DNA of 64,000 bases, from positions 2,490-66,489 of the forward strand of contig JAZQKB010000034.1 in NCBI GenBank assembly GCA_045541975.1, read 5' to 3'. Of this stretch, positions 9,404 to 61,605 are shown piece by piece. The translations under genes were made by a program, and so were the position numbers. Within the stretch, counting starts at the first letter, position 1. Each line of letters starts with the position of its first letter. This DNA is from Clostridia bacterium. Its GTDB lineage: Bacteria; Bacillota; Clostridia; UMGS1840. Under the pieces are notes generated by a model. The model did not search any database. It was not told the DNA's origin and worked only from the letters and a program-made list of their open reading frames with translations.

Positions 9404-12259
9404 TTAGCCGTTAATGTCAACGATTAAGATTAATTTGGTTTCGCCGTCGTAGTTGTATACATATACAGCGTCGTCGTTGTCTAACTGAGAAGCATCGTTC
9501 CAGTCACCGGTAGATTTTTCAGTATCAACATCAGAGATGGAAGCTACTTTGATTTTGCCGCTAGTTACATCATAAACATAAGCGTTAGCAGCAGGATTGA
9601 AGGTGAAGTCAGTGATTAAAGCATCGTTTACACCGTAGAATCTGTCAGAACCGGATAAGGTAGATGCATAATCATCTGCCTGAACTAAGTTCATAGTTTT
9701 ACCTTTCAGGCTGTGTACTTTACCAGCGATACCAAAACCTTTTAAGGTTTCTGCATCGGTAGTACCAGCGGTGAAGAAGGTGTTCAGGTTAGCAGTGTTG
9801 AAGGTAGGAGCAAATTTGATGGTCTGTTTGGTACCATTCTGAAGTAATTTTTCATCATCAGCAGCGTGAGCGGAGTTGTCAACAACTTCGTAACCAGTAC
9901 CGTCAACGTATTTAGCTAAGATAGTAGCAGCGGTGATTTCGCCGTCAGCGTTGGTAGCGATCATAGCGATATCGTTAACACCTAATAAGGTCTTGCTTAC
10001 GCCTTCAGCGGTAACCAGTTCAACTTCTTCGCCGTCGATGTAACCAACTAATTTTGCTCTGTAGTCGTTAGCAACGGATACAGTAGAAACTTTGGTTACA
10101 ACTAAGGGGAAGCCACCCATGTTAACTTTGTCCATTTGCTGATACAGAACAACGAATTTAGCTTCTTTGTTGTCGTTGTATACTGCGAAGTAATCATAGG
10201 TTTCAGTTTCATCGAACATGTCGATAGAAGCAACAGCATATTCAGCTTTGGTGTTAAGACCGTAACCGTCTTTAGTAATTACTACAACAGTGTTTTCAGT
10301 GATGAAGTAATTATCTAATTTTTCGCGAGATTCATAGTAAGCTTTACCGGTCTGGTAATCAGCTTTGTCGTCGCCTCTTACGTTAGCAGAACCAAAGTTG
10401 CCAGCAGAAGCGATGTCGTACGCTTTGATTTCGCCTGCATTGTTTAAGCTGTAAGCAACGATATTGTCTGCAGCAAAGTCAGCAGCGAAAGTAGTAGCAT
10501 AAGCAGCAGCGGTGGTATCAACAGTGGTGTTTACTTTATCAGCTAAGTTTAAGGTAACGATTTCACCAGCGGTGGTTAATACCTGAACCTGATAGGTAGT
10601 ACCAAAGTCAGTAGCAACGTGGGTATCAATAACAACAGCGTAGTTTTTAACGCCTTCTGCTACATCGTAGCAAACGATCTTATCGCCGTATACGGTAGCG
10701 GTAATAGCATCACCAGGATTTAATAAGGTAGTAGAACCACTTTCAGGAATCAGCATAGTGTAGTCTGCATCGCCGATGGTATAGTAAACTTTACCATTTT
10801 CTTTGTAAGACTGAGATACAGTTCCTTCAATGGTATTTTTGGTGATAACGATTTCATAGTAGGTGTTGGTGCCATCATCAGATTTTGCAACAGCTGCAAC
10901 ATCACCAGCTTCGATATCTGCTAATTCTAATGCATTACCTTCAGCGTCAGTTAAAGACCAAGCAACGGTTTCAACTTCAGGATCTAACACGATAGTACCG
11001 GTGAAGGTGCTCTGTGCGTTAGCGTTGGTGGTTTCTTTCTGAATTTTGAAGGTTTTGGTGTTTACGGAACCAACAACGAAGATGCCGATGTTATCAACAA
11101 ATACGGTTTCATAAGTACCATCGTTATCGGTATCGGTGAATCTGTAAGCTACGTCGCCAGTGTTACCACCAACAGCAACGTCGCTCCAGCTACCAGCTAC
11201 TAAGTTTTTGTAAACTTTCATGCTGGTGGAATCGTTCAGAACTTTGATTTTGGTGTTTCTGTCGTCATCAGCGGTTTTTTTGTATTCAACATAATTATCG
11301 GTTGAAGAAATAGTAGCTTCCTGTAATAATGCAGGATCAACGGTGATTTCAACGTTTTTGCCAGCTTTAGCAACAACGGTAATCAGTTTCCATTCAGCCG
11401 CATCAGCTTTGTCGATAATAGCGGTAGCAGTTAAGCCCTGTAAACCGGTTAAATCAACACCGTTCATTTTAACAGTACCAGGAACGGTGAAAGGAACTTC
11501 ATCGTAATTAGCCTTAGCTACACGGTCCATTTTTAAAGGATTGATGGTAACGGTAGCATCAGTTTCAGTTTTGCTTAAAGGAACAACGTCAAATTTAACT
11601 TCAGCTTTGATTGCGCTCAGTTTGGTCCACAGGATAGACTGGGTAGCGATAGGTTCAAATTTTTCATCAGTACCCCAAGAAGTCTGGTCCATCATGGGAA
11701 CGGTCAGAGCGTTGTAGGTTAATCTTGCAACGGTAGATCTAGCTGCGCCGCCAGCGGTGTTAGCAGTACCAACGGTGATAGATTCCTGGTTAGCAATCAT
11801 CATGTAACCGGTGGGGTAACCGCCCAGAGACTGAGCTTTTCTTTCGTAACCTAATGCACGAACTAACATAGCAACAGCCTGTTCGTAGGTAACTTCTGCG
11901 GAAGGAGCGAAAGTACCATCGCCCATACCATTAACGATACCTAACTGAGAAGCGGTTGCAATGTAACCGGATGCCCAGTGATCAGCAGCAACGTCGGTGA
12001 AGTAGCCGCCAACCTGGTTAGCGCCTGCATCGCCCATGTCCAGAATTCTGCAAACGATTGCAGCATATTCTGCTCTAGTAATTTTGCCTTCAGGTTTGAA
12101 AGTGCCGTCTCCGTAACCAGTGATGATGTCGAGAGCGGACAGAACCTGAACAGCTTCAGCGTAGTTAGCAGTAGCAGCAACGTCGGTGAATGCGAAAGTC
12201 TGCATGCCGAACAGCATTACAACTGCTAATACTAAGGATAAAACTTTAGACAGTTTCAT
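9404..12259 (-). CDS. S-layer protein with N-terminal signal peptide and SLH domains
   Basis: Signal peptide MKLSKVLSLVLAVVMLFGMQTFA. Three SLH repeats (FTDV...ITGYGDGTFKPEGKITRAEYA etc.). A long Thr/Val/Asp/Ala-rich body, a strong RBS AGGAGG and highly-expressed-style codon usage. Confidence 0.85.
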   Translation of the reverse strand: MKLSKVLSLVLAVVMLFGMQTFAFTDVAATANYAEAVQVLSALDIITGYGDGTFKPEGKITRAEYAAIVCRILDMGDAGANQVGGYFTDVAADHWASGYIATASQLGIVNGMGDGTFAPSAEVTYEQAVAMLVRALGYERKAQSLGGYPTGYMMIANQESITVGTANTAGGAARSTVARLTYNALTVPMMDQTSWGTDEKFEPIATQSILWTKLSAIKAEVKFDVVPLSKTETDATVTINPLKMDRVAKANYDEVPFTVPGTVKMNGVDLTGLQGLTATAIIDKADAAEWKLITVVAKAGKNVEITVDPALLQEATISSTDNYVEYKKTADDDRNTKIKVLNDSTSMKVYKNLVAGSWSDVAVGGNTGDVAYRFTDTDNDGTYETVFVDNIGIFVVGSVNTKTFKIQKETTNANAQSTFTGTIVLDPEVETVAWSLTDAEGNALELADIEAGDVAAVAKSDDGTNTYYEIVITKNTIEGTVSQSYKENGKVYYTIGDADYTMLIPESGSTTLLNPGDAITATVYGDKIVCYDVAEGVKNYAVVIDTHVATDFGTTYQVQVLTTAGEIVTLNLADKVNTTVDTTAAAYATTFAADFAADNIVAYSLNNAGEIKAYDIASAGNFGSANVRGDDKADYQTGKAYYESREKLDNYFITENTVVVITKDGYGLNTKAEYAVASIDMFDETETYDYFAVYNDNKEAKFVVLYQQMDKVNMGGFPLVVTKVSTVSVANDYRAKLVGYIDGEEVELVTAEGVSKTLLGVNDIAMIATNADGEITAATILAKYVDGTGYEVVDNSAHAADDEKLLQNGTKQTIKFAPTFNTANLNTFFTAGTTDAETLKGFGIAGKVHSLKGKTMNLVQADDYASTLSGSDRFYGVNDALITDFTFNPAANAYVYDVTSGKIKVASISDVDTEKSTGDWNDASQLDNDDAVYVYNYDGETKLILIVDING

Positions 12260-16891: not shown

Positions 16892-18739
16892 TTAGGAAAC
16901 TTTAGCCATCAACTTGATAATGAATATTAAAACCATTACAACCAGCGTGATAATCAACAAAATGCTAACGATCAAACCGGTGTAAGATTCCTGCTGATTG
17001 GTCAGAATAATACGGGGGCTGCTATATTCCTCAGGATTTTCTGTGTGAGTCAGATGCTCTAAGAGTGCCTGTCCTTCAGAACCGTAGTCTTCTTCCACTT
17101 CCCGTTCTAAAAATGCATCAAAACCAAGCTCTCCGGAGAAGACTCCGCTGGAAGATGCAAGCGAAATGGAGGTATAGCTATCTGCTAAATTCAGCTCTAC
17201 GCCGTTATCCAAACGGATTCCCATGACTCGTTTTCCGGGTTCATTGTTAAAGTTAACTTGCACAGTAAAACCGGAAATCTGCGGAAATTCTGTGGTGGCA
17301 GTGGCAGGATCAATGGTGCCGTCTTCCCTCAGCTCAATGTGATACAAACAACCCTCCAGAGCTGTTCTGAGCATTTTCGGGGTAACATTTTTCACCTGCA
17401 CAGTGTACTGATTAGGAAGTACCGCCAAAATAGTGGCTTTGGTGATTTCACCTTCCGGAATGCTGGCCTCAATACTGCCTGCATTTACCATTGCAACGGT
17501 TGCCATCGTTTTCTGACGGTATGCATCCGCAACAAAATTTCCAAGGGGGTCTGACTGATACAGCATAGAATAACTATACGGAATGGTGGTTTCTGCTCTG
17601 GCAATATCAGCGCCTAAAATCTCAGACTGACGATGGGCAATTTCATTTTCCAATGCAACTACCGCTTCATCCTGAGGCAGATTCAGAATCCCTTCATAGC
17701 TCCACTGTGTGGTGGATAGATTGGTAATTTTACGGTAGGCATCAAAATTGATGGTCAATTCGATTGCCTGTTTCCCGTTGAACCCAGGATTTAAAATCAA
17801 AGTATCACCAATCCATCTACCGGTTTCTTCCACATGGTCGTGGCCGTCTAAAACAAAATCAATGCCATTTACAAAGGCTGTCACCTGGTCTATAGTGGTG
17901 TTGCCTTCGTTACCAACATGGCTCAGCGCAATAATCACATCTGCGCCTTCGGCTTTCAGTTTATTCACACATTTCTGAGCGGTTCTGGCAGCATCTTCCA
18001 GATAAACATCTTCTAGATTCTGCAGGCTGGCATCCAACCGCAAATCAGGATTTAAAATGCTAAAAAAGCCAACATTGATGCCGTTCACATCTAAAATAAT
18101 GGTATCTCCTAACAAAGGCATTCTCTCTTTTGCATACGAAATATTGGAAGATAACATATGAAAACCGGCTTCAGTCTGCACTTTGCGCAGTGGTTCAATC
18201 CCGTTTTCCAAATCGGCTTCCCCGATCCCTGCCACACGGTATCCGGCTGCATTCATCAGAGAAAGCACATCGCTGATGGTTTCTTCGGTGGTAAACAAAT
18301 TGGAAGTCAGATAGTCACCGCCATCCACCAGGATACTGCCGGGAATGGAACGCTGAATGGCAGCAATACCGGAATATCCCAAAGTGCCACTGGTAGCATT
18401 CTGTTGAAAATGCCCGTGAATATCGGAAGTAAAAAGAATGGTAACGGTAGTACCGTTTTCCCCGATCACAGTCGGTGTGGGACTGGGCGTTGCTGCTACA
18501 GTAGCAGGTTCTGCAACCGCTGCAGGTTTGGAAGTTACTGCTGCAGGAGTATTTTCTACAACTGCTGTGGGACTGGGCGTTGCTACTGCAGAATCGGGTT
18601 CTACATCTGCGGGGGCTTCATTTACAACGGCATCCGTTGCGGGCTGAACTGGCTCTGCAGGACTTTCCACAGGCTGAGCAAACACACTTATGGTACATAA
18701 ACAAACAAGTAATAACAAAACCGTTAGTTTTTTCATCAT
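16892..18739 (-). CDS. Secreted, membrane-anchored bifunctional metallophosphatase / 5'-nucleotidase
   Basis: Signal peptide, Pro/Ala/Thr/Val-rich linker, metallophosphoesterase motifs (TSDIHGH, GDYL, SHVGNEG, DGHDH), a 5'-nucleotidase C-terminal domain and a C-terminal TM helix. Confidence 0.85.
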   Translation of the reverse strand: MMKKLTVLLLLVCLCTISVFAQPVESPAEPVQPATDAVVNEAPADVEPDSAVATPSPTAVVENTPAAVTSKPAAVAEPATVAATPSPTPTVIGENGTTVTILFTSDIHGHFQQNATSGTLGYSGIAAIQRSIPGSILVDGGDYLTSNLFTTEETISDVLSLMNAAGYRVAGIGEADLENGIEPLRKVQTEAGFHMLSSNISYAKERMPLLGDTIILDVNGINVGFFSILNPDLRLDASLQNLEDVYLEDAARTAQKCVNKLKAEGADVIIALSHVGNEGNTTIDQVTAFVNGIDFVLDGHDHVEETGRWIGDTLILNPGFNGKQAIELTINFDAYRKITNLSTTQWSYEGILNLPQDEAVVALENEIAHRQSEILGADIARAETTIPYSYSMLYQSDPLGNFVADAYRQKTMATVAMVNAGSIEASIPEGEITKATILAVLPNQYTVQVKNVTPKMLRTALEGCLYHIELREDGTIDPATATTEFPQISGFTVQVNFNNEPGKRVMGIRLDNGVELNLADSYTSISLASSSGVFSGELGFDAFLEREVEEDYGSEGQALLEHLTHTENPEEYSSPRIILTNQQESYTGLIVSILLIITLVVMVLIFIIKLMAKVS

Positions 18740-19821
18740 TTGGCATTTCCTTTCTCATGGTACTGATACGGAAACCGATACGGCAACTGCATCACAGAAG
18801 CGATTACCTTTGCCACCTCTGCACGGGTAGCTAATTTCAACGGTAAAAACTCGCCACTTTCATATCCGTTGACACAACCTGCCTGCTGCAGACTCTGAAT
18901 CGGGTCATAAGCATAGTTGGCAATTTGTGCAAAATCTAAAAACTCATATCGGGGACGTAGCCTTGCAACTGTGGACTGAGTCCGACGGTATGCCCGATAG
19001 ATCACCGCACACATTTCCTGACGGGTAACAAACTCATTCGGGGAAAATTCTCCCTCGTAAATCCATTGAAACAGTGAAAAATACTCTGCACAGCGTAAAG
19101 CGTCATAATACCAACTGTCTGCACTGACATCCGGATACTGACTTGTTTCATAAGAGTAACTATCGTCCAAAAAGGCCCTCGTTACCAGGTGGCAAAGCTC
19201 GGCACGGGTGATCGGACTCTCTGGCTGGAAAGTGCCGTCCGGATAGCCGGAAATATGACCGTTTTCTTTTAAGTACGAAATAGCAGGGATGACCCAGTCG
19301 TATCCTGCAAGATCCAAAAAAGGAGGAGCAGGGGTTGGTGTTGGCTCGGGAGTGGGTTCCGGCGTGGAAGAAGGTTCCGGTTCTTCTTCGGGACCATCAT
19401 CAGAAGGCGGAACATAAGCAATGTTATTCCCCATAACAGATAAAAAGAAAATTTCCATACTTTCGGGGACTCTTCCCGTTTCGGCAATATAGACCACTTC
19501 CTCTTGAAAAGCCTGGTCAAAGGTTACCATAACGGGCAAATATTTTTCCTGCTGGAAAATATATAAAAGCAATAAACTAAGAAAATAATTTTCTAGGGTT
19601 TCTCTGTCTTCCGGTTTCTGAAGCTTGTCTGCCTCTTCATCCAACACATTCATAAAGGAACGAGTCATTTCTTCGGAAAGGCCCCCATCTAAAAACCGCT
19701 CAATTAAACCGGGGTCCATGTTTAAAAGCACATCATAGGTGGAAACCTCACGGGCAAAGCAAACAAAGCCTTGCAACCATGTGATTACAAGTACCAATAA
19801 AAACGCAACGAAACGTTTCAC
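18736..19821 (-). CDS. SLH-domain cell-wall-associated protein
   Basis: Signal peptide, PEPTPEPTPTP linker and three C-terminal SLH repeats (ISGYPDGTFQPESPITRAELCHLV...). ATGA overlap with the downstream gene. Confidence 0.8.
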   Translation of the reverse strand: MKRFVAFLLVLVITWLQGFVCFAREVSTYDVLLNMDPGLIERFLDGGLSEEMTRSFMNVLDEEADKLQKPEDRETLENYFLSLLLLYIFQQEKYLPVMVTFDQAFQEEVVYIAETGRVPESMEIFFLSVMGNNIAYVPPSDDGPEEEPEPSSTPEPTPEPTPTPAPPFLDLAGYDWVIPAISYLKENGHISGYPDGTFQPESPITRAELCHLVTRAFLDDSYSYETSQYPDVSADSWYYDALRCAEYFSLFQWIYEGEFSPNEFVTRQEMCAVIYRAYRRTQSTVARLRPRYEFLDFAQIANYAYDPIQSLQQAGCVNGYESGEFLPLKLATRAEVAKVIASVMQLPYRFPYQYHEKGNAK

Positions 19822-56346: not shown

Positions 56347-56354
56347 AAATCAGT

Positions 56355-56387
56355 AAAAAAAGGAATTGCAATGCAATTCCTTTTTTT
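56355..56387. terminator. Bidirectional terminator between leuB and the phage-like module
   Basis: A7 ggaattg caatg caattcc T7. Confidence 0.85.
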
Positions 56388-56388
56388 A

Positions 56389-56574
56389 TTAGTTATAAAG
56401 TGCTTCTTTCACGCGTTCTTCCATTCGTTTTACCACAAAACTTCCCCTTGCCTTCGGCGGTTTTTTTGATTGCGATTCTGAAGGGAGTTTCTGTTCTAAA
56501 ACACGGCATAGTTTTTTTAGCTCCCCATATTTTAAAATTTCAATCACAAGTAGACAGACCAGTAATACCGACAT
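56389..56574 (-). CDS. Small protein with a hydrophobic N-terminus and basic C-terminus, unknown function
   Basis: Its ATG overlaps the stop of the 596-aa gene (TAATG). MSVLLVCLLVIEIL is followed by a charged tail. It ends at the bidirectional terminator. Confidence 0.45.
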   Translation of the reverse strand: MSVLLVCLLVIEILKYGELKKLCRVLEQKLPSESQSKKPPKARGSFVVKRMEERVKEALYN

Positions 56575-58364
56575 TATTTATCACGTTCCTTTTTCAGTTT
56601 CAAATAGATATTAAAAATCTGCAAGGGAGTTTTTTCCTTGGGATTGGTAGTACCAAAAATTTCCAAAGAAAACAGATTTCCTGTTACCTTCCACGGTAAC
56701 ACCGTTTCCGAAAACTGACTGTTACGGTAGCGATAATGCCAGGGGGTGTTCTGATAGCGGAAATGATTGGTGTGTTCCAAAACGCCTTCCTTTTGTTCCC
56801 GCTCGGAAGAAAGCCTGATACGGCAATCAACGGGATATGTTAACGAAGCGGATTTCAACGCCAATTCCTCGGAGCGGGCAAGCTCCGTTTCCTCCACGGC
56901 ACCGAGAATCGGAATGTTTACCGAAAAGGAAATGGGGATATCGGATTGGGTGTTCGGGTCATAATCGGTGGATGTGCCTTCTGAAAACACCGTCACACAG
57001 TTTCCTGAACCCATCAGAAGTTCACCATTGTAACTTTCGCTCATACATTGGCAGGTAAGCCCCCGATAACAAAGAAAGGAGCCTAAGGTGAAATGATACA
57101 GATACATGGTGTCATCAATCATCAGATAGTAAACACCGTTGCGGTAAAATCCAAATGCCTTTTCTTTGGGAACGGGCAGAGCAATTTTCTCTTTGGATAA
57201 AAATTTATAAAGAGAACTGGAGGGGGAATACAGCATCTGCACTGTCAGCATAGACGAAGAAAAACTAACCAGTCCGCTGTCCGACAAAAAGCTGACACTT
57301 CCCGGCGTGGTGCAAACAGTTCCACCGTGACGGGTGCCGTCGGGTACACTAAGCAGTGACCACTGCGCATCCTCGGTGGGGTCCGAGCCTACATAATGAC
57401 TCCAGCCGTATTCATAGGAAACCACCACCGATTTTTCCACCACCGAAAGTCCGGTGATTTTTCCCAGATGCAAATGGGGATAGAGTATATTTGCTTTTTG
57501 GTAATTATGCCATTCATTTGGCTCGCTGATAAATAACGCGGTGGGATAATCAGGATGCCCTGCCGCAAAATAACGCATGGAAGCGGGATGCCACACGATA
57601 TAGGGACACCGAAAAGCCAGTGCGCCTGTTTCACTTAAATCAGGTCCCAGAGAGAATATGCCCGATAGCGATGAAGCAATCTCACAAACATAATAATCGC
57701 TGTCGCAATACAGCGTTTTGCAATCCAGCTTTGCCTTAGCCTCCAGCTCATATTTCATGTGAACCAATGCACCCAGTTCCCCCAGGCACACAAATTGGTC
57801 AGTTGCAAACAGCTCTGTGATATTTTCATGGTTGGCATTCGTATGTGACTTGGCATAATAAAGGGTGTTGGTTGCCTCATCCCAAATGGTTTTTCCGTAT
57901 AAATCAGCAGGAAATTCTCCCAGGGAGGAATAGTCATCAGGCAAACGCTCCAATACCAGGTAGCCTTCCCAGGGATACTGTATGGTGATAATCCCGTCCA
58001 CACGGCGGTAAATCGGCTTTAAATAACGTGTTCTTTCGGCTGAAATAAAGGCAAATCCATCCGTGACGGGAATCACTTTAAAGCTGTTACAAAGCATACT
58101 GGGTTTACATTTCACACCACCCAGCACCATTTCTAAATACTCTCCGCATTGCACGAACAAAATTTCATGTCCCTTAACACTGAGACATTTATGAATTGCG
58201 GTGACTTCCCCCACAAAAGGACCGTACTTCTTAACGGTACCTGCACGAACCTTAAGGCCTCCCTCCTCCACATCAAAATTGCAAAGCTCCAACGCCTCGT
58301 CTTTCTTTAGCAGATAGGGAGACTTCTGATTGACAATCCCTCCTGAAAAATCGTAAAAATTCAT
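56574..58364 (-). CDS. Podovirus tail hub / nozzle-like protein (T7 gp12 / P22 gp10 pattern)
   Basis: 596 aa, beta-rich. The N-terminus FSGGIVNQKSPYLLKKDEALELCNFDVEEGGLKVRAG parallels the recalled T7 gp12 N-terminus LKGGISQQPDILRYPDQG...EGLQKRPP. GGAGG RBS lies inside the end of the upstream gene. Confidence 0.55.
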   Translation of the reverse strand: MNFYDFSGGIVNQKSPYLLKKDEALELCNFDVEEGGLKVRAGTVKKYGPFVGEVTAIHKCLSVKGHEILFVQCGEYLEMVLGGVKCKPSMLCNSFKVIPVTDGFAFISAERTRYLKPIYRRVDGIITIQYPWEGYLVLERLPDDYSSLGEFPADLYGKTIWDEATNTLYYAKSHTNANHENITELFATDQFVCLGELGALVHMKYELEAKAKLDCKTLYCDSDYYVCEIASSLSGIFSLGPDLSETGALAFRCPYIVWHPASMRYFAAGHPDYPTALFISEPNEWHNYQKANILYPHLHLGKITGLSVVEKSVVVSYEYGWSHYVGSDPTEDAQWSLLSVPDGTRHGGTVCTTPGSVSFLSDSGLVSFSSSMLTVQMLYSPSSSLYKFLSKEKIALPVPKEKAFGFYRNGVYYLMIDDTMYLYHFTLGSFLCYRGLTCQCMSESYNGELLMGSGNCVTVFSEGTSTDYDPNTQSDIPISFSVNIPILGAVEETELARSEELALKSASLTYPVDCRIRLSSEREQKEGVLEHTNHFRYQNTPWHYRYRNSQFSETVLPWKVTGNLFSLEIFGTTNPKEKTPLQIFNIYLKLKKERDK

Positions 58365-58368
58365 ATTG

Positions 58369-58902
58369 CTACCTCCAGTTCGGTTTCGGCAGAGGTGAAC
58401 GCGGGATTCTCATTCTTCCCTGCAAGCTTTGATGGATGGCGGCACAGTTATCGTAAAATTCTTCAATCAAGCGATCTGCCAAACGGTTGGTGGGATCATC
58501 TGCCCGTAACACAGAAAATGCCACGTATTTGCATAATTCCGAGTCATACTCAGCAGCAGTGGGAATTTCTTCTCCCTCCGCCACAAACCCCTGAGGGGAA
58601 CTGTAATAATAGACCTGATATTCTCCTTCACGGTTGAGGTGAAGTCCTTCCTCGTCCAAACGGTAGTCCCCATATCGCTGTTTATTGCGGTATACTTTAT
58701 AAATTCCTCGGTGTGCAGGCATAGGATAAGGATCCCCGTCTGCCTGCCAGAGCACCCGCAGGCATTTGATAGGGCAAGCGGTGGGATATCGGGCAATCAG
58801 CAGTCGGATTCCTTCGTTTAAAAAACGGTTTGCCAACGGGCTGTCCACAGGTTTTCCAATCAATACAGATGCCACATCGGTTACTTCCTGTAAGGTCATC
58901 AT
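58369..58902 (-). CDS. Head-to-tail adaptor-like protein (T7 gp11 / P22 gp4-type pattern)
   Basis: 177 aa. The N-terminus LQEVTDVASVLIGKPVDSPLANRFLNEGIRLL resembles adaptor N-termini. Its position is immediately before the hub gene. AAGGAGGAAG RBS. Confidence 0.4.
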   Translation of the reverse strand: MMTLQEVTDVASVLIGKPVDSPLANRFLNEGIRLLIARYPTACPIKCLRVLWQADGDPYPMPAHRGIYKVYRNKQRYGDYRLDEEGLHLNREGEYQVYYYSSPQGFVAEGEEIPTAAEYDSELCKYVAFSVLRADDPTNRLADRLIEEFYDNCAAIHQSLQGRMRIPRSPLPKPNWR

Positions 58903-58914
58903 CTTCCTCCTTCC

Positions 58915-59310
58915 TTACAAAAAACGGGTGGTAAACGCCCCGTCATCTATGTGTTCTTTGTCGGAGTGATGAGATAGATAGGTAACGGTTTCCCGAAACT
59001 TTTCGGTTGCTTCCTCGGGGATTGCGGACTGCTCTTTGAAAATTTTTTGGTTGGTTTCTTCCATTTCCAAAAGAATTTTTTCCAGATTGGAAATACGGGT
59101 TTTTCGCACCAGTTGAAGTGTCCGTGCATCCAATTCCTTGTAGGGGACAGTTAAACAGTAAGTATTATGAGGCTGGTCTCTATGATGAATTTCAAATGTT
59201 TTTCTCTCATGATTTCGGAGCACAAAATAACCCGGATCCAGTTCCCGAAGACGCTCCGGAATATTAAACACATTGGTAGTAATGGGCGTTTTTATTCGTT
59301 GTTGTTTCAT
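58915..59310 (-). CDS. Hypothetical protein (131 aa) within the phage-like module
   Basis: Intact ORF with an AAGAGGA RBS. No motif I recognise. Confidence 0.5.
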   Translation of the reverse strand: MKQQRIKTPITTNVFNIPERLRELDPGYFVLRNHERKTFEIHHRDQPHNTYCLTVPYKELDARTLQLVRKTRISNLEKILLEMEETNQKIFKEQSAIPEEATEKFRETVTYLSHHSDKEHIDDGAFTTRFL

Positions 59311-59448
59311 GATTCCTCTTTTTTAAAAAGGAGGTTGCCCAAAAAGTTGATTCACTTCTTAAACAACCCCATTCCACAAGGGATAGGAAACAGGCTTTAT
59401 AGCAAAAACTTGCTTTTTGCACTCTAAAGTCTTTTCACATCCCTTTTG

Positions 59449-60597
59449 TTATGCTGTAATTCCTTTGAGTCTAGCCTGACCGCCCGGATGGTCACACATT
59501 AACTCGCCGTATTTGGCTAAAACTGCAGTCCAAGCGGGTTTTCCTGCAATTTGTTTTAAGATTTTGCCGTCGTCATCCAGCCAGTCCCAATCGGATAAGG
59601 TGTGCATTGCAAAAGACTTGGAATTTAACAAGTCCATGGTACCGTCGGGACAGTGACGGTCTGCCACAATGGGAATACCGCCAAAGGAAATTGCCTGGAA
59701 TCCACCTTCTAAGGTCATGGGATCAATGTTTCTTCTGGTTAATTCCAGATAAGAAAGATAGTTTCTTCTCACATCGTAGGAGCAGGAAATATAGTCCACC
59801 TTGCTGCCGGTGTGTTCTTCTAAGTAGTCCATAGCGGTCTGAATTTTTAAGTCAGAAATTTCGCCGGTAGCTTCATTCAGATAGGGGAGCATCCAGTAGT
59901 TTTCGCTACGGTTCACGCCGTATAAGGGCTGAGTAGTGTCGGAGTTAAAAATTGCGCCCAGACCGGTCAGTTCTTTGCCGTAGGAATTTTGCACGGTAAT
60001 TTTATCCCCTGCTGTCACGGTAACCTCACCGTCTAACACAATCACTTTTTCAGCACGGTTAATAGCGGTGATACGTTTTGCAGCCTGGGTAGCGGAAGAG
60101 CCGATGATATCAATAATCATGCCTTCAATCAGATATTTTACAGAGTCCACCTGCACCTGATTGCCGCTTCCTTCTACCACGGTGGCAATTACGCCGGTAC
60201 CGTCGGTAAATAAGGCTCTGGAATAATTAAACTTAGCAGCTTCTAAGATGCCTTTCATTTCCTGAGTCAGTAAGTCCACAAAGGAATTGGTGTTTAAGCG
60301 GGATGCTTTCATTGCTTTATCGGAAATTTCAATCACACCATACATGTCTTTGGTGGTAGTCTCAAAATGAGTGTACTGGTTGGAACCTGCTTTCGGAAGG
60401 TTACCGGCATCGGAGGAGAATCCAAATCCGCCGTTTAACGCATAGGGTGCAAGTCTTACCACCTTGTGACCGATGATATTCTGAGAGGTTGTAACAATTT
60501 TGTTGTAAAAGGGGTTGGTAGTTGTGTTCAGCTGATTTCTTAAAACGTCCAGATAATAGCTTTTTAAAGCGACATCCGCTGTGTTGGTAGTAATCAT
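59449..60597 (-). CDS. HK97-fold-type major capsid protein (T7 gp10-like pattern)
   Basis: 382 aa. YGVIEISDKAMKASRLNTNSFVDLLTQEMKGILEAAKFNYSRALF (spine-helix-like) and the C-terminus AVLAKYGELMCDHPGGQARLKGI resemble coat proteins. A scaffold-like gene precedes it. Confidence 0.6.
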   Translation of the reverse strand: MITTNTADVALKSYYLDVLRNQLNTTTNPFYNKIVTTSQNIIGHKVVRLAPYALNGGFGFSSDAGNLPKAGSNQYTHFETTTKDMYGVIEISDKAMKASRLNTNSFVDLLTQEMKGILEAAKFNYSRALFTDGTGVIATVVEGSGNQVQVDSVKYLIEGMIIDIIGSSATQAAKRITAINRAEKVIVLDGEVTVTAGDKITVQNSYGKELTGLGAIFNSDTTQPLYGVNRSENYWMLPYLNEATGEISDLKIQTAMDYLEEHTGSKVDYISCSYDVRRNYLSYLELTRRNIDPMTLEGGFQAISFGGIPIVADRHCPDGTMDLLNSKSFAMHTLSDWDWLDDDGKILKQIAGKPAWTAVLAKYGELMCDHPGGQARLKGITA

Positions 60598-60676
60598 AAT
60601 TGTGAAGTCCTTTCTTTGATGTTCCCGTTTTATAAAAAAATCCTATGAAACATGAAACAAAAACGGGAACAGTTTT

Positions 60677-61207
60677 TTAGTGTTTTACCATTTGAAGAAA
60701 CATTTCGCCTGCTTCTTCAAAGGTTTTTGGTTGGTTGCCCGGAGTGGTACAAAACTCACCGCCTTGTCCGCAAATTAACGCCGGGGGCATCTGAGACAAG
60801 CTGTGGGCATATTCGCGGTAAGCTTGGGGCAATGTGGTTAATGCCCTTTTTGCCATGGTGAATGCCGCCTGGTGATCTAAAGATAACAGTTCGGGGTTTT
60901 CTTCCAGATAAGAGATAAAGTCGTATGCCCGATCAGCTAAGCCGTGCTCCTCCAAGAAGCCTTCCAGGTCGCTCTGAAATTTTGCTTCCACATCGGGGAC
61001 AGTGGCTTCTGCCAGGAGTTCACGTGCCTCTTTTAATTCTTCTCTGGTTCTGGAGATAAACCGTTCACTTTCGCAATATGCTTTTTCCAGCTCGGAATAA
61101 TCTTTGAATTTGCCGAGAATTAAGGGGGGATTCTCCCCGTTCTCTATGGGATTGGTCCCAACTGCAAAATGCTCATCCTGAGTGCAGTCGATAGGATTAT
61201 CAATCAT
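60677..61207 (-). CDS. Capsid scaffolding-like protein
   Basis: Acidic, predicted-helical 176 aa starting at ATG 61207 behind AAAGGAAGGA. The LGKFKDYSELEKAY motif is common at scaffold N-termini. The track ORF extends in frame to 61387, but those starts lack an RBS. Confidence 0.5.
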   Translation of the reverse strand: MIDNPIDCTQDEHFAVGTNPIENGENPPLILGKFKDYSELEKAYCESERFISRTREELKEARELLAEATVPDVEAKFQSDLEGFLEEHGLADRAYDFISYLEENPELLSLDHQAAFTMAKRALTTLPQAYREYAHSLSQMPPALICGQGGEFCTTPGNQPKTFEEAGEMFLQMVKH

Positions 61208-61474
61208 ATGTTCATTCCTTCCTTTCGCTTGTTTTCCTGCTTTTTTAATAACAGGGGTTCGGAAAACCGCTATGATTACCACGTCCGGGACTTCTTCGGC
61301 TTCCGGCCCCCTTAGTATGCAACGAATTTCACCGATTCGCAAGTTCATCTTTTTTGCAGCTTTTTGTTCCCTTTTTTTGGATACCATTCCCCTATAAAAA
61401 ACTTACGTCTTAGAAATTTGGTTTTGCCTAAAAAATTTTCCGACCAAAAATACAAAAAAACCGACGATTTATGA

Positions 61475-61503
61475 TTGACATTACGAAAAAAAGGTAGTAT
61501 AAT
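61475..61503 (+). promoter_or_regulatory. Consensus sigma-A promoter of serC-serA
   Basis: TTGACA - 17 nt - TATAAT. Confidence 0.65.
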
Positions 61504-61605
61504 AAATTTGATATCCAAATTGGATTGTTAAAAATTAAACAAGTGTAATTTTAATGGTTCCCTACGGGGGCCAAAGACATAAAAATCAGAATGGAGACAG
61601 CAAGT

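Follow-up and report, generated by a model that had tools for sequence, protein, structure and literature searches.

Layout of the cassette

Between leuB and serC of an uncultured Clostridia bacterium lies a cassette of six podovirus-type genes, found in a stretch of 64 kb (contig JAZQKB010000034.1 of assembly GCA_045541975.1; the whole analysed stretch is hereafter called the window). The six open reading frames (ORFs), each intact, occupy positions 56389-61207, all on the minus strand between the leuB terminator and the serC promoter, and encode in order a scaffolding-like protein, a major capsid protein (MCP, or coat), a conserved protein of 131 aa (p131), an adaptor-like protein, a tail nozzle, and a small membrane protein of 61 aa (p61). 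An initial annotation, made from the letters of the window alone, had already placed six minus-strand ORFs at these positions in the T7-like order scaffold, coat, adaptor, and nozzle, with gaps of 12 and 4 nt and one TAATG stop/start overlap; the positions and the gene order agree, and the gaps and the overlap are reproduced from the window sequence. Similarly, it had assigned ribosome-binding sites to the five larger ORFs, and purine-rich sites precede all six starts.

The two flanking signals that had been proposed, a leuB terminator and a serC promoter, are both real on a sequence scan. A bidirectional intrinsic terminator at 56354-56388, common to leuB and the cassette, is built of 17-nt inverted arms without a mismatch, with A- and T-runs on either side, and the serC promoter at 61475-61503 (TTGACA, 17-nt spacer, TATAAT) matches the consensus at 12 of 12 positions. 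The guanine-plus-cytosine (GC) content of the cassette (0.448, with 0.436 for the window) equals that of the host, which is to say that it has been ameliorated. A 236-aa version of the first ORF, reaching to 61387, is rejected as an artefact of the ORF caller; the extension is non-coding because it covers the promoter and the leader and carries 1- and 2-nt indels among relatives, and the scaffold is 176 aa long.

Head and hub genes

The first gene (60677-61207) encodes the scaffolding-like protein, a designation that relies on position and on homology to an outgroup gene. No match to the protein is found in Pfam, PHROG, or NCBIfam; its homologues (31-34% identity, E down to 5e-16) are the collinear genes that intervene between portal and MCP in L010, the nearest outgroup, and in L012 and L009, and it is this homology and collinearity that bears out the scaffold call of the initial annotation. 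The second gene (59449-60597) encodes an MCP of 382 aa, of the podovirus type with an HK97 fold, as assigned from NCBIfam and PHROG profiles. Its residues 5-380 cover positions 3-310 of the 311 positions of NCBIfam model NF033394 (capsid_maj_Podo) with 213.2 bits and E = 5.1e-63, passing the curated cut-off of 80 bits; this is the sole significant match in the NCBIfam scan, and it is joined by phrog_14242 ("major head protein", E = 5.6e-57) and by a weak match to SU10_MCP of Pfam. The identity first proposed for the coat is thereby upheld by NF033394 (213 bits) and phrog_14242. Homologues of the MCP number about 2,900; the best relatives among deposited phages reach 23-29% identity (e.g., Arthrobacter phage Jasmine), and IMG/VR holds no close MCP (best 41%).

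The third gene, at 58915-59310, encodes p131, a conserved protein of the module that recurs at the corresponding place in L010, L012, L117, and many relatives from IMG/VR; it is the extra ORF that had been remarked on between coat and adaptor. No family match to p131 is obtained in Pfam or PHROGs, and its alignment profile searched against PDB sequences is also empty. The fourth gene (58369-58902) encodes a protein of 177 aa that is probably a head-to-tail adaptor, judged by its family matches to SU10_adaptor and its position. The window copy itself matches Pfam SU10_adaptor (PF24175) weakly, with 13.4 bits against a threshold of 27 and E = 0.1, in an alignment collinear over 143 of the 194 profile positions; six of 11 aligned family members match the same profile, the best with E = 1.7e-7. 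The gene lies directly upstream of the nozzle gene, as it does in the phage-like contig L009. The adaptor-like character first proposed for this protein finds support in these six family members. Its single-sequence AlphaFold2 model is unusable (mean predicted local distance difference test, pLDDT, of 35), and nothing is found when its alignment profile is compared with PDB sequences.

The fifth gene (56574-58364) encodes a protein of 596 aa whose sequence matches no family in Pfam, PHROG, or NCBIfam and has no counterpart in annotated phages or IMG/VR. An AlphaFold2 model built on 29 homologues (pLDDT 86.1, predicted template-modelling score 0.85) was compared with the PDB by Foldseek, and each of the top 30 matches is a nozzle or hub chain from a podovirus (E = 5e-14 to 1e-9, probability 1.00), including those of Pan3, A4, Pa223, T7 gp12, SU10, Kp7/Kp9, phiM1, P22 gp10, and Sf6 gp8. 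On this predicted structure the protein has the podovirus nozzle fold, that of a beta-propeller-based hub subunit, as the likeness to T7 gp12 and P22 gp10 noted in the initial annotation had suggested. The 28 cluster representatives of the nozzle (51-100% identity) measure 585-598 aa, with 27 of them at 595-598 aa, and P0150, a distant homologue in L009, is also preceded by two SU10_adaptor genes. The sixth gene (56389-56574), translationally coupled to the nozzle gene, encodes p61, a small single-pass membrane protein with a variable hydrophobic N-terminus and a C-terminus, PPKARxSFVVKRMEExLKEAxY, conserved in 7 genomes. It matches nothing in Pfam, PHROG, or NCBIfam, and a role in lysis or membrane association is speculation.

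Fixation and selection

The same genes in the same order adjoin serC-serA in 8 further species-representative metagenome-assembled genomes (MAGs) and are intact wherever the contig allows them to be read. Because the coat scores E = 5e-63 on a curated model and the same six genes recur in 8 other genomes, the observation lies far beyond chance. The closest MCPs (88-99% identity) belong to MAGs named "Clostridia bacterium" from the ruminant hindgut, with one member of the close-MCP cluster labelled as a Ruminococcaceae/Oscillospiraceae bacterium. In JAGBEY the cassette is still beside serC, though a DHQS-like gene and leuA replace leuBDC on the other flank. The comparison of the leuB-serC junction across relatives, which had been put forward as a check, thus finds the cassette present at serC, syntenic, and free of decay; it is fixed and vertically inherited in a clade of uncultured ruminant-gut Clostridia. 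Outside this set, the basal locus L117 (coat 77% identical) has its cassette next to the 5' end of the 16S rRNA gene (L117:1-560) and not next to serC.

The cassette is under purifying selection. The flanking serA, serC, and leu genes show a synonymous divergence (dS) of 0.26-1.4 and a ratio of nonsynonymous to synonymous divergence (dN/dS) of 0.02-0.11; at a dS similar to that of these flanks, dN/dS is 0.016-0.10 for the MCP and 0.06-0.35 for the scaffold, and the adaptor and nozzle genes have a dS of 1.1-3.4 with a dN/dS of 0.035-0.18. These values bear on the first of three options left by the initial annotation, namely that the cassette is what is left of a dead prophage and drifts neutrally. 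Such a remnant would agree with the lack of the expected portal, terminase, lysis, and integrase genes at the locus. However, dN/dS amounts to 0.016-0.18 at a dS of about 0.3-3, the ORFs are intact in every genome, and the promoter and leader are conserved; since dN/dS equals that of housekeeping genes and all ORFs are intact, neutral decay is excluded, and the decaying fragment is refuted to the point of being scarcely credible.

The unlinked portal locus

In relatives of the window genome the portal is encoded at a second chromosomal locus. With the portal of L010 as the query, the top matches form a tight group of 614-624 aa and of the P22/SU10 type. One of these portals, J6A61_02280, shares its locus-tag prefix with the nozzle homologue J6A61_06745, and in assembly JAZUBQ the portal lies on JAZUBQ010000019.1 and the cassette on JAZUBQ010000023.1. 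A concatenated alignment of coat and portal, scanned against a collection of 185,579 species genomes, returns 16 loci in 9 assemblies, and both loci are present, on different contigs, in 7 assemblies. The unlinked portal for which the initial annotation had advised a search is hence found, and its second option, a domesticated particle whose other parts lie elsewhere in the genome, gains direct support from a conserved portal in the same assemblies and is the best supported of the three.

Wherever enough sequence is available, the portal locus reads spoIIIAA-AH, an ORF of 80-83 aa that overlaps the portal start, the portal, an ORF of 79 aa, and a convergent mgtC, and the portal gene comes directly 3' of spoIIIAH without an intervening terminator (e.g., L017:9681-12179). 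The solitary portal locus also occurs in L014, L019, L022, L027-L032, and L034; in the last of these, a basal JGI lineage, the portal still follows spoIIIAH, the upstream ORF has just 43 aa, and the downstream flank differs. Across the genomes of the clade the portal is 80-91% identical with a dN/dS of 0.08-0.09, and the neighbouring MgtC and SpoIIIAH are similar in this respect. JAZQGY, the nearest relative of the window genome (99% aa identity in serC and MCP), has the portal locus. The small protein encoded upstream of the portal, p81, was considered as a diverged form of p86, a protein like the small terminase subunit (TerS) in relatives, and was rejected at an hhalign probability of 1%.

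Promoter and leader signals

The cassette promoter is predicted at 61314-61347 (minus strand) and consists of an A-tract, TGAACTTG overlapping a -35-like TTGCGA, a 17-nt spacer, and a -10-like CATACT. The motif TGAMCTTG and the CATACT hexamer are present at 9 of 9 serC-linked cassette loci, and the basal L117 cassette has TGAACTTG with CATAAT. TGAMCTTG also precedes the unlinked portal operon in 7 genomes, with TACAAT, TATTCT, TATGCT, or TACGCT as the -10-like hexamer, so that both loci have an A-tract, TGAMCTTG overlapping a -35-like TTGYNA, and a -10-like hexamer 17 nt on. Within the window the motif occurs 3 times, once in a promoter context, which is that of the cassette. The same promoter-proximal motif at each locus suggests their joint control. 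Compared by eye with Bacillus/Clostridioides consensus sequences, neither promoter offers a convincing fit to sigma-E, -K, -F, -G, or -H; both look sigma-A-like with an unusual CATACT -10 element. The portal promoter starts right at the stop codon of spoIIIAH, and since no terminator separates the two, transcriptional read-through from spoIIIA into the portal operon is plausible.

Downstream of the cassette promoter, the alignment of 9 genomes reveals a conserved 5' leader of 46 nt at 61260-61305 on the minus strand (CGGAAGCCG...AGTCCCGGACGTGGTAATCATA...CGGTTTTCCG), followed at 61236-61257 on the same strand by a hairpin of variable sequence that is terminator-like in L024. The leader is nearly invariant across these genomes, whose flanking genes have a dS of about 1, and RNAalifold encloses it in a predicted outer helix of 9 bp, which shows little covariation in the clade. 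In L117 the leader keeps the core GGAGTGGTAATCATA (also written GYGGTARTSATA) and a helix of other sequence, GGAAATGG/CCTATTTCC; as both the promoter motif and the leader core are kept there, away from serC, they travel with the cassette. The core is found in a comparable context nowhere else in 1.5 Mb of loci, and the leader has no credible match in Rfam; it could be a riboswitch-like or antitermination element. An Rfam match to the Lacto-rpoB RNA that stays below the gathering score (27.9 bits, with 40 required; E = 0.027) lies at 61490-61542 on the plus strand, overlapping the promoter and leader of serC, and is probably a chance match in AT-rich sequence.

Mosaic hub half

The cassette is a mosaic. 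Against its nearest relative, L018, the window shows 92-96% nucleotide identity over most of serA, serC, the scaffold gene, and the MCP gene, with lower values of 79-90% between serC and the scaffold gene; at about 59,650, close to where the coat gene ends, identity falls abruptly to 65-85% through p131, adaptor, nozzle, and p61, and it returns to 87-91% in the leu genes. In parallel, dS is about 0.3 for the head half and climbs to about 1.1-1.2 for the adaptor and nozzle genes. Given this jump in dS and this drop in identity, the hub half, from p131 to p61, has a separate history, most simply explained by allelic replacement through recombination. A terminator-like hairpin at 59331-59370 (minus strand), a stem of 17 pairs followed by a T-run, stands between the MCP and the hub genes and could act as an attenuator that sets a high ratio of coat to hub expression. 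The hairpin also lies where the comparison with L018 places the recombination breakpoint.

In the nozzle, pairwise identity is 27-41% over the hypervariable residues 181-240, and residues 300-390 are 83-89% conserved, as would be expected of a surface whose target keeps changing. Purifying selection on the core genes, together with a fast-evolving, recombining nozzle half, is also the pattern of an arms race, and could be read as that of an anti-phage system in which the retained structural genes cause the virions of infecting, related podoviruses to mis-assemble or otherwise poison them. Six co-transcribed genes in assembly order and an unlinked, conserved portal nevertheless exceed what interference needs, IMG/VR contains no close phage relative with which to interfere, and no defence-system architecture is seen near the cassette, where PADLOC was not run. 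An anti-phage role is for these reasons regarded as improbable.

Mobility and relatives

The initial annotation had reported the window to be free of flanking direct repeats and of portal, terminase, and integrase genes, and the window searches confirm this: apart from the cassette, the 64 kb contain no portal, terminase, or other genes of this phage family, no integrase, and no att-like flanking direct repeats. The hallmarks of an integrated prophage (an integrase, att repeats, and linked lysis, replication, or packaging genes) are therefore lacking. The third initial option was a helper-dependent satellite that redirects the capsid and hub assembly of a helper phage, and a locus that encodes capsid and hub with no packaging, lysis, or replication genes in cis would suit such an element. 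Against this, the cassette is found at a single chromosomal site, next to serC, in 9 species-level genomes and has neither integrase, att site, nor replication genes; its own portal is fixed elsewhere, and its GC content is ameliorated to that of the host. The mobility and variable location of phage-inducible chromosomal islands (PICIs), including the capsid-forming type (cf-PICIs), are not seen, the location being fixed in all serC-linked genomes, and a mobile helper-dependent cassette is accordingly not supported and very improbable. What is found instead is what characterizes gene transfer agents (GTAs) and other viriforms, namely chromosomal, phage-derived structural genes without integration, replication, or lysogeny modules, at two loci that keep their positions in up to 9 species-level MAGs with housekeeping-level dN/dS.

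The relatives of the cassette can be arranged in a graded series. At one end stand free phage-like contigs, which carry the large terminase subunit (TerL), the TerS-like p86, portal, scaffold, coat, p131, and hub genes. In L010 the portal, scaffold, coat, p120, adaptor, nozzle, a fibre-like protein, an amidase, and a holin are contiguous, and housekeeping genes, not TerL, lie upstream; in L012 the portal still adjoins the scaffold gene; and in the present clade the portal has a locus separate from the head-hub operon. Two species of Borkfalkia have a compact eight-gene cluster of about 9.3 kb, running from TerL to p169 (L003:4602-13938 and L035:5191-14216), which comprises TerL, p86, portal, scaffold, coat, and three more genes and is situated between housekeeping genes, beside pgm. 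The p86 of this cluster matches the C-terminal part of TerS (phrog_309, E = 3e-6), the cluster contains no integrase or lysis genes, and no description of it was found in the literature searched; it is a candidate GTA-like locus in Christensenellales. A scan of viral contigs for TerL gives 80 loci of the TerL-p86-portal-MCP family, none of them from the present clade; L071 and L074, returned by the same scan, are unrelated phages.

Several further features of these relatives deserve mention. In L003, long GC-rich non-coding stretches with tandem units (e.g., GTGACGGTCTTCAAAAATGAGAAAAAAGTGCGGGCGGCGG) precede TerL (L003:3732-4601) and separate TerL from p86 (L003:6036-6767). The TerL genes of L003 and L005 are 100% identical from about residue 300 on and about 70% identical before it, which points to a junction within TerL that arose by recombination; the two loci also differ in their upstream flanks, although their coat proteins are identical. 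The phage-like contig L009 carries a serine recombinase and, between coat and adaptor genes (L009:4961-7447), a diversity-generating retroelement with an mtd-like target protein and a reverse transcriptase. Two large ORFs of the window, 9404-12259 and 18736-19821 (minus strand), show SLH-domain-like similarity to the amidase-SLH protein of L009 and probably encode cell-wall-anchored host proteins outside the element.

Interpretation

The cassette is held to be, on a rather narrow balance of probability, one locus of a dispersed, domesticated, GTA-like particle derived from a podovirus. The six genes would form a head-and-hub assembly operon for scaffold, coat, p131, adaptor, nozzle, and the small membrane protein, and the portal with its two small ORFs would be supplied from the second fixed locus downstream of the spoIIIA sporulation operon. 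As in textbook podovirus morphogenesis, scaffold-assisted coat shells would form on the portal, after which adaptor and nozzle would close the portal vertex; the fast-evolving, recombining half of the cassette that holds the nozzle would be the part exposed to diversifying pressure. By analogy with other GTAs and with FpGTA, the GTA-like element of Faecalibacterium prausnitzii, the particle would package host DNA and deliver it to related cells, with the terminase, fibre, and release functions encoded at further loci. Gene identities, fixation, purifying selection, the unlinked portal, the common motif, and the mosaicism are seen in the sequences; that particles form, package DNA, and transfer it is inferred from them.

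A number of points weigh against a DNA-transferring particle. Searches by tblastn and with a TerL hidden Markov model (queries from L003, L005, and phage Jasmine) find no TerL in the window, nor, for any genome of the clade, in the roughly 20 kb surrounding each locus (about 10 kb to a side); with a terminase search that covered the window and these surroundings, DNA packaging stays a prediction. Moreover, no endolysin, holin, or fibre gene is linked to the loci in this clade, the portal of the window genome is deduced from that of its nearest relative, and the -10 element and the common promoter motif are consensus-level predictions. FpGTA has particle, proteomic, and DNA evidence, whereas the present element is known from its genes. 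The coat of FpGTA (RCH50849.1) is annotated as N4-gp56 and the present coat as capsid_maj_Podo, a distinction drawn by annotation; given the different coat family, the analogy is to be taken as functional and not as orthology.

Some of the same evidence would fit a domesticated and selected particle that does not transfer DNA, such as a terminase-less shell, a delivery device, or a structure tied to sporulation. Neither locus has a terminase near it or lysis genes linked to it, as far as the window and the surroundings were searched, and the portal follows spoIIIAH without a terminator in every lineage, including the basal L034 with its different other flank. However, according to established podovirus structural biology, portal, adaptor, and nozzle together conduct DNA in all known cases; TerL and a TerS-like fragment are retained in the compact relatives, and there is no known precedent for a selected, terminase-less particle of a tailed phage. 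A particle of this kind is considered unlikely, though it takes up most of the probability that the GTA-like reading leaves.

A more specific form of the GTA-like reading couples the particle to sporulation. Transcription of spoIIIA in the mother cell would continue into the portal operon, the capsids would assemble in the same cell, and they would be freed at its lysis; release by mother-cell lysis would explain why lysis genes are absent from both loci. A GTA of this type would salvage the otherwise discarded chromosome of the mother cell, and it is viewed as a rather unlikely variant.

The two loci represent a second lineage, independent of the first, in which podovirus-derived genes are fixed in the host, and its coat is of another family. 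They also show that a system of this sort can be split over small loci, which would probably escape prophage finders and GTA searches. Handles for finding more of them are the cassette itself, a portal gene behind spoIIIA, the promoter motif, and the leader element. There is also a link to a larger family through the roughly 2,900 coat homologues and the compact Borkfalkia clusters. If DNA is moved, the particle would open an unrecognised route of gene flow among Clostridia of the ruminant, and possibly the human, gut, and its tie to a sporulation operon would amount to a novel form of control by the host.

Comparison with known systems

Among mobile elements, cf-PICIs likewise have capsid genes without the full set needed for a virion; they differ from the cassette in their mobility and in carrying an integrase, att sites, and replication genes, all absent from it. 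The autonomous podoviruses that provide the structural counterparts (T7 gp11/gp12, P22 gp4/gp10, and SU10) agree with it in the nozzle fold, in the SU10-type signature of the portal and probably of the adaptor, and in the order scaffold-coat-adaptor-nozzle. In these viruses, however, the portal is adjacent; the cassette has an extra p131 between coat and adaptor and a membrane protein after the nozzle.

The GTAs of the RcGTA type, viriforms of the Alphaproteobacteria, are similarly domesticated, vertically inherited, multi-locus, and under purifying selection (established knowledge and PMC9662315). They are nonetheless siphovirus-like with a tail tube, retain terminase and portal in the main cluster, respond to the regulators CtrA/GafA, and belong to another phylum. 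Closer to hand, the clusters of Borkfalkiaceae/Christensenellales (L003, L035) resemble the present system in coat family (50% identity), portal family (36% identity), module order, and housekeeping flanks; they differ in that TerL and the TerS-like fragment are contiguous with the rest and in that the adaptor and nozzle genes are unrelated at the sequence level.

The nearest described counterpart in function is FpGTA, which forms capsid-like particles of about 40 nm without visible tails, containing about 9 kb of host DNA, and is encoded by 2 operons about 125 kb apart (PMC12946183). Its authors (Borodovich et al., Nat Commun 2026) infer the podovirus-like form from the genes and present it as the first podovirus-like GTA-like element; packaging of the GTA type is likewise reported for Ruminococcaceae, Oscillospiraceae, and Christensenellaceae, with genes not identified in most of the taxa (PMC12946183). 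The statement in the initial annotation that nothing of this sort had been described for this kind of organism is thus no longer quite true, as FpGTA is a two-locus system in a related lineage of gut Clostridia (PMC12946183). Locus I of FpGTA unites TerS, TerL, portal, scaffold, and MCP, whereas here the portal is apart and the system more fragmented. The two systems are alike in being podovirus-like and chromosomal, in residing at unlinked loci of an anaerobic gut member of the Clostridia without an integrase or replication module, and in having a head operon in which scaffold and coat are accompanied by hub genes of the "conserved hypothetical" class.

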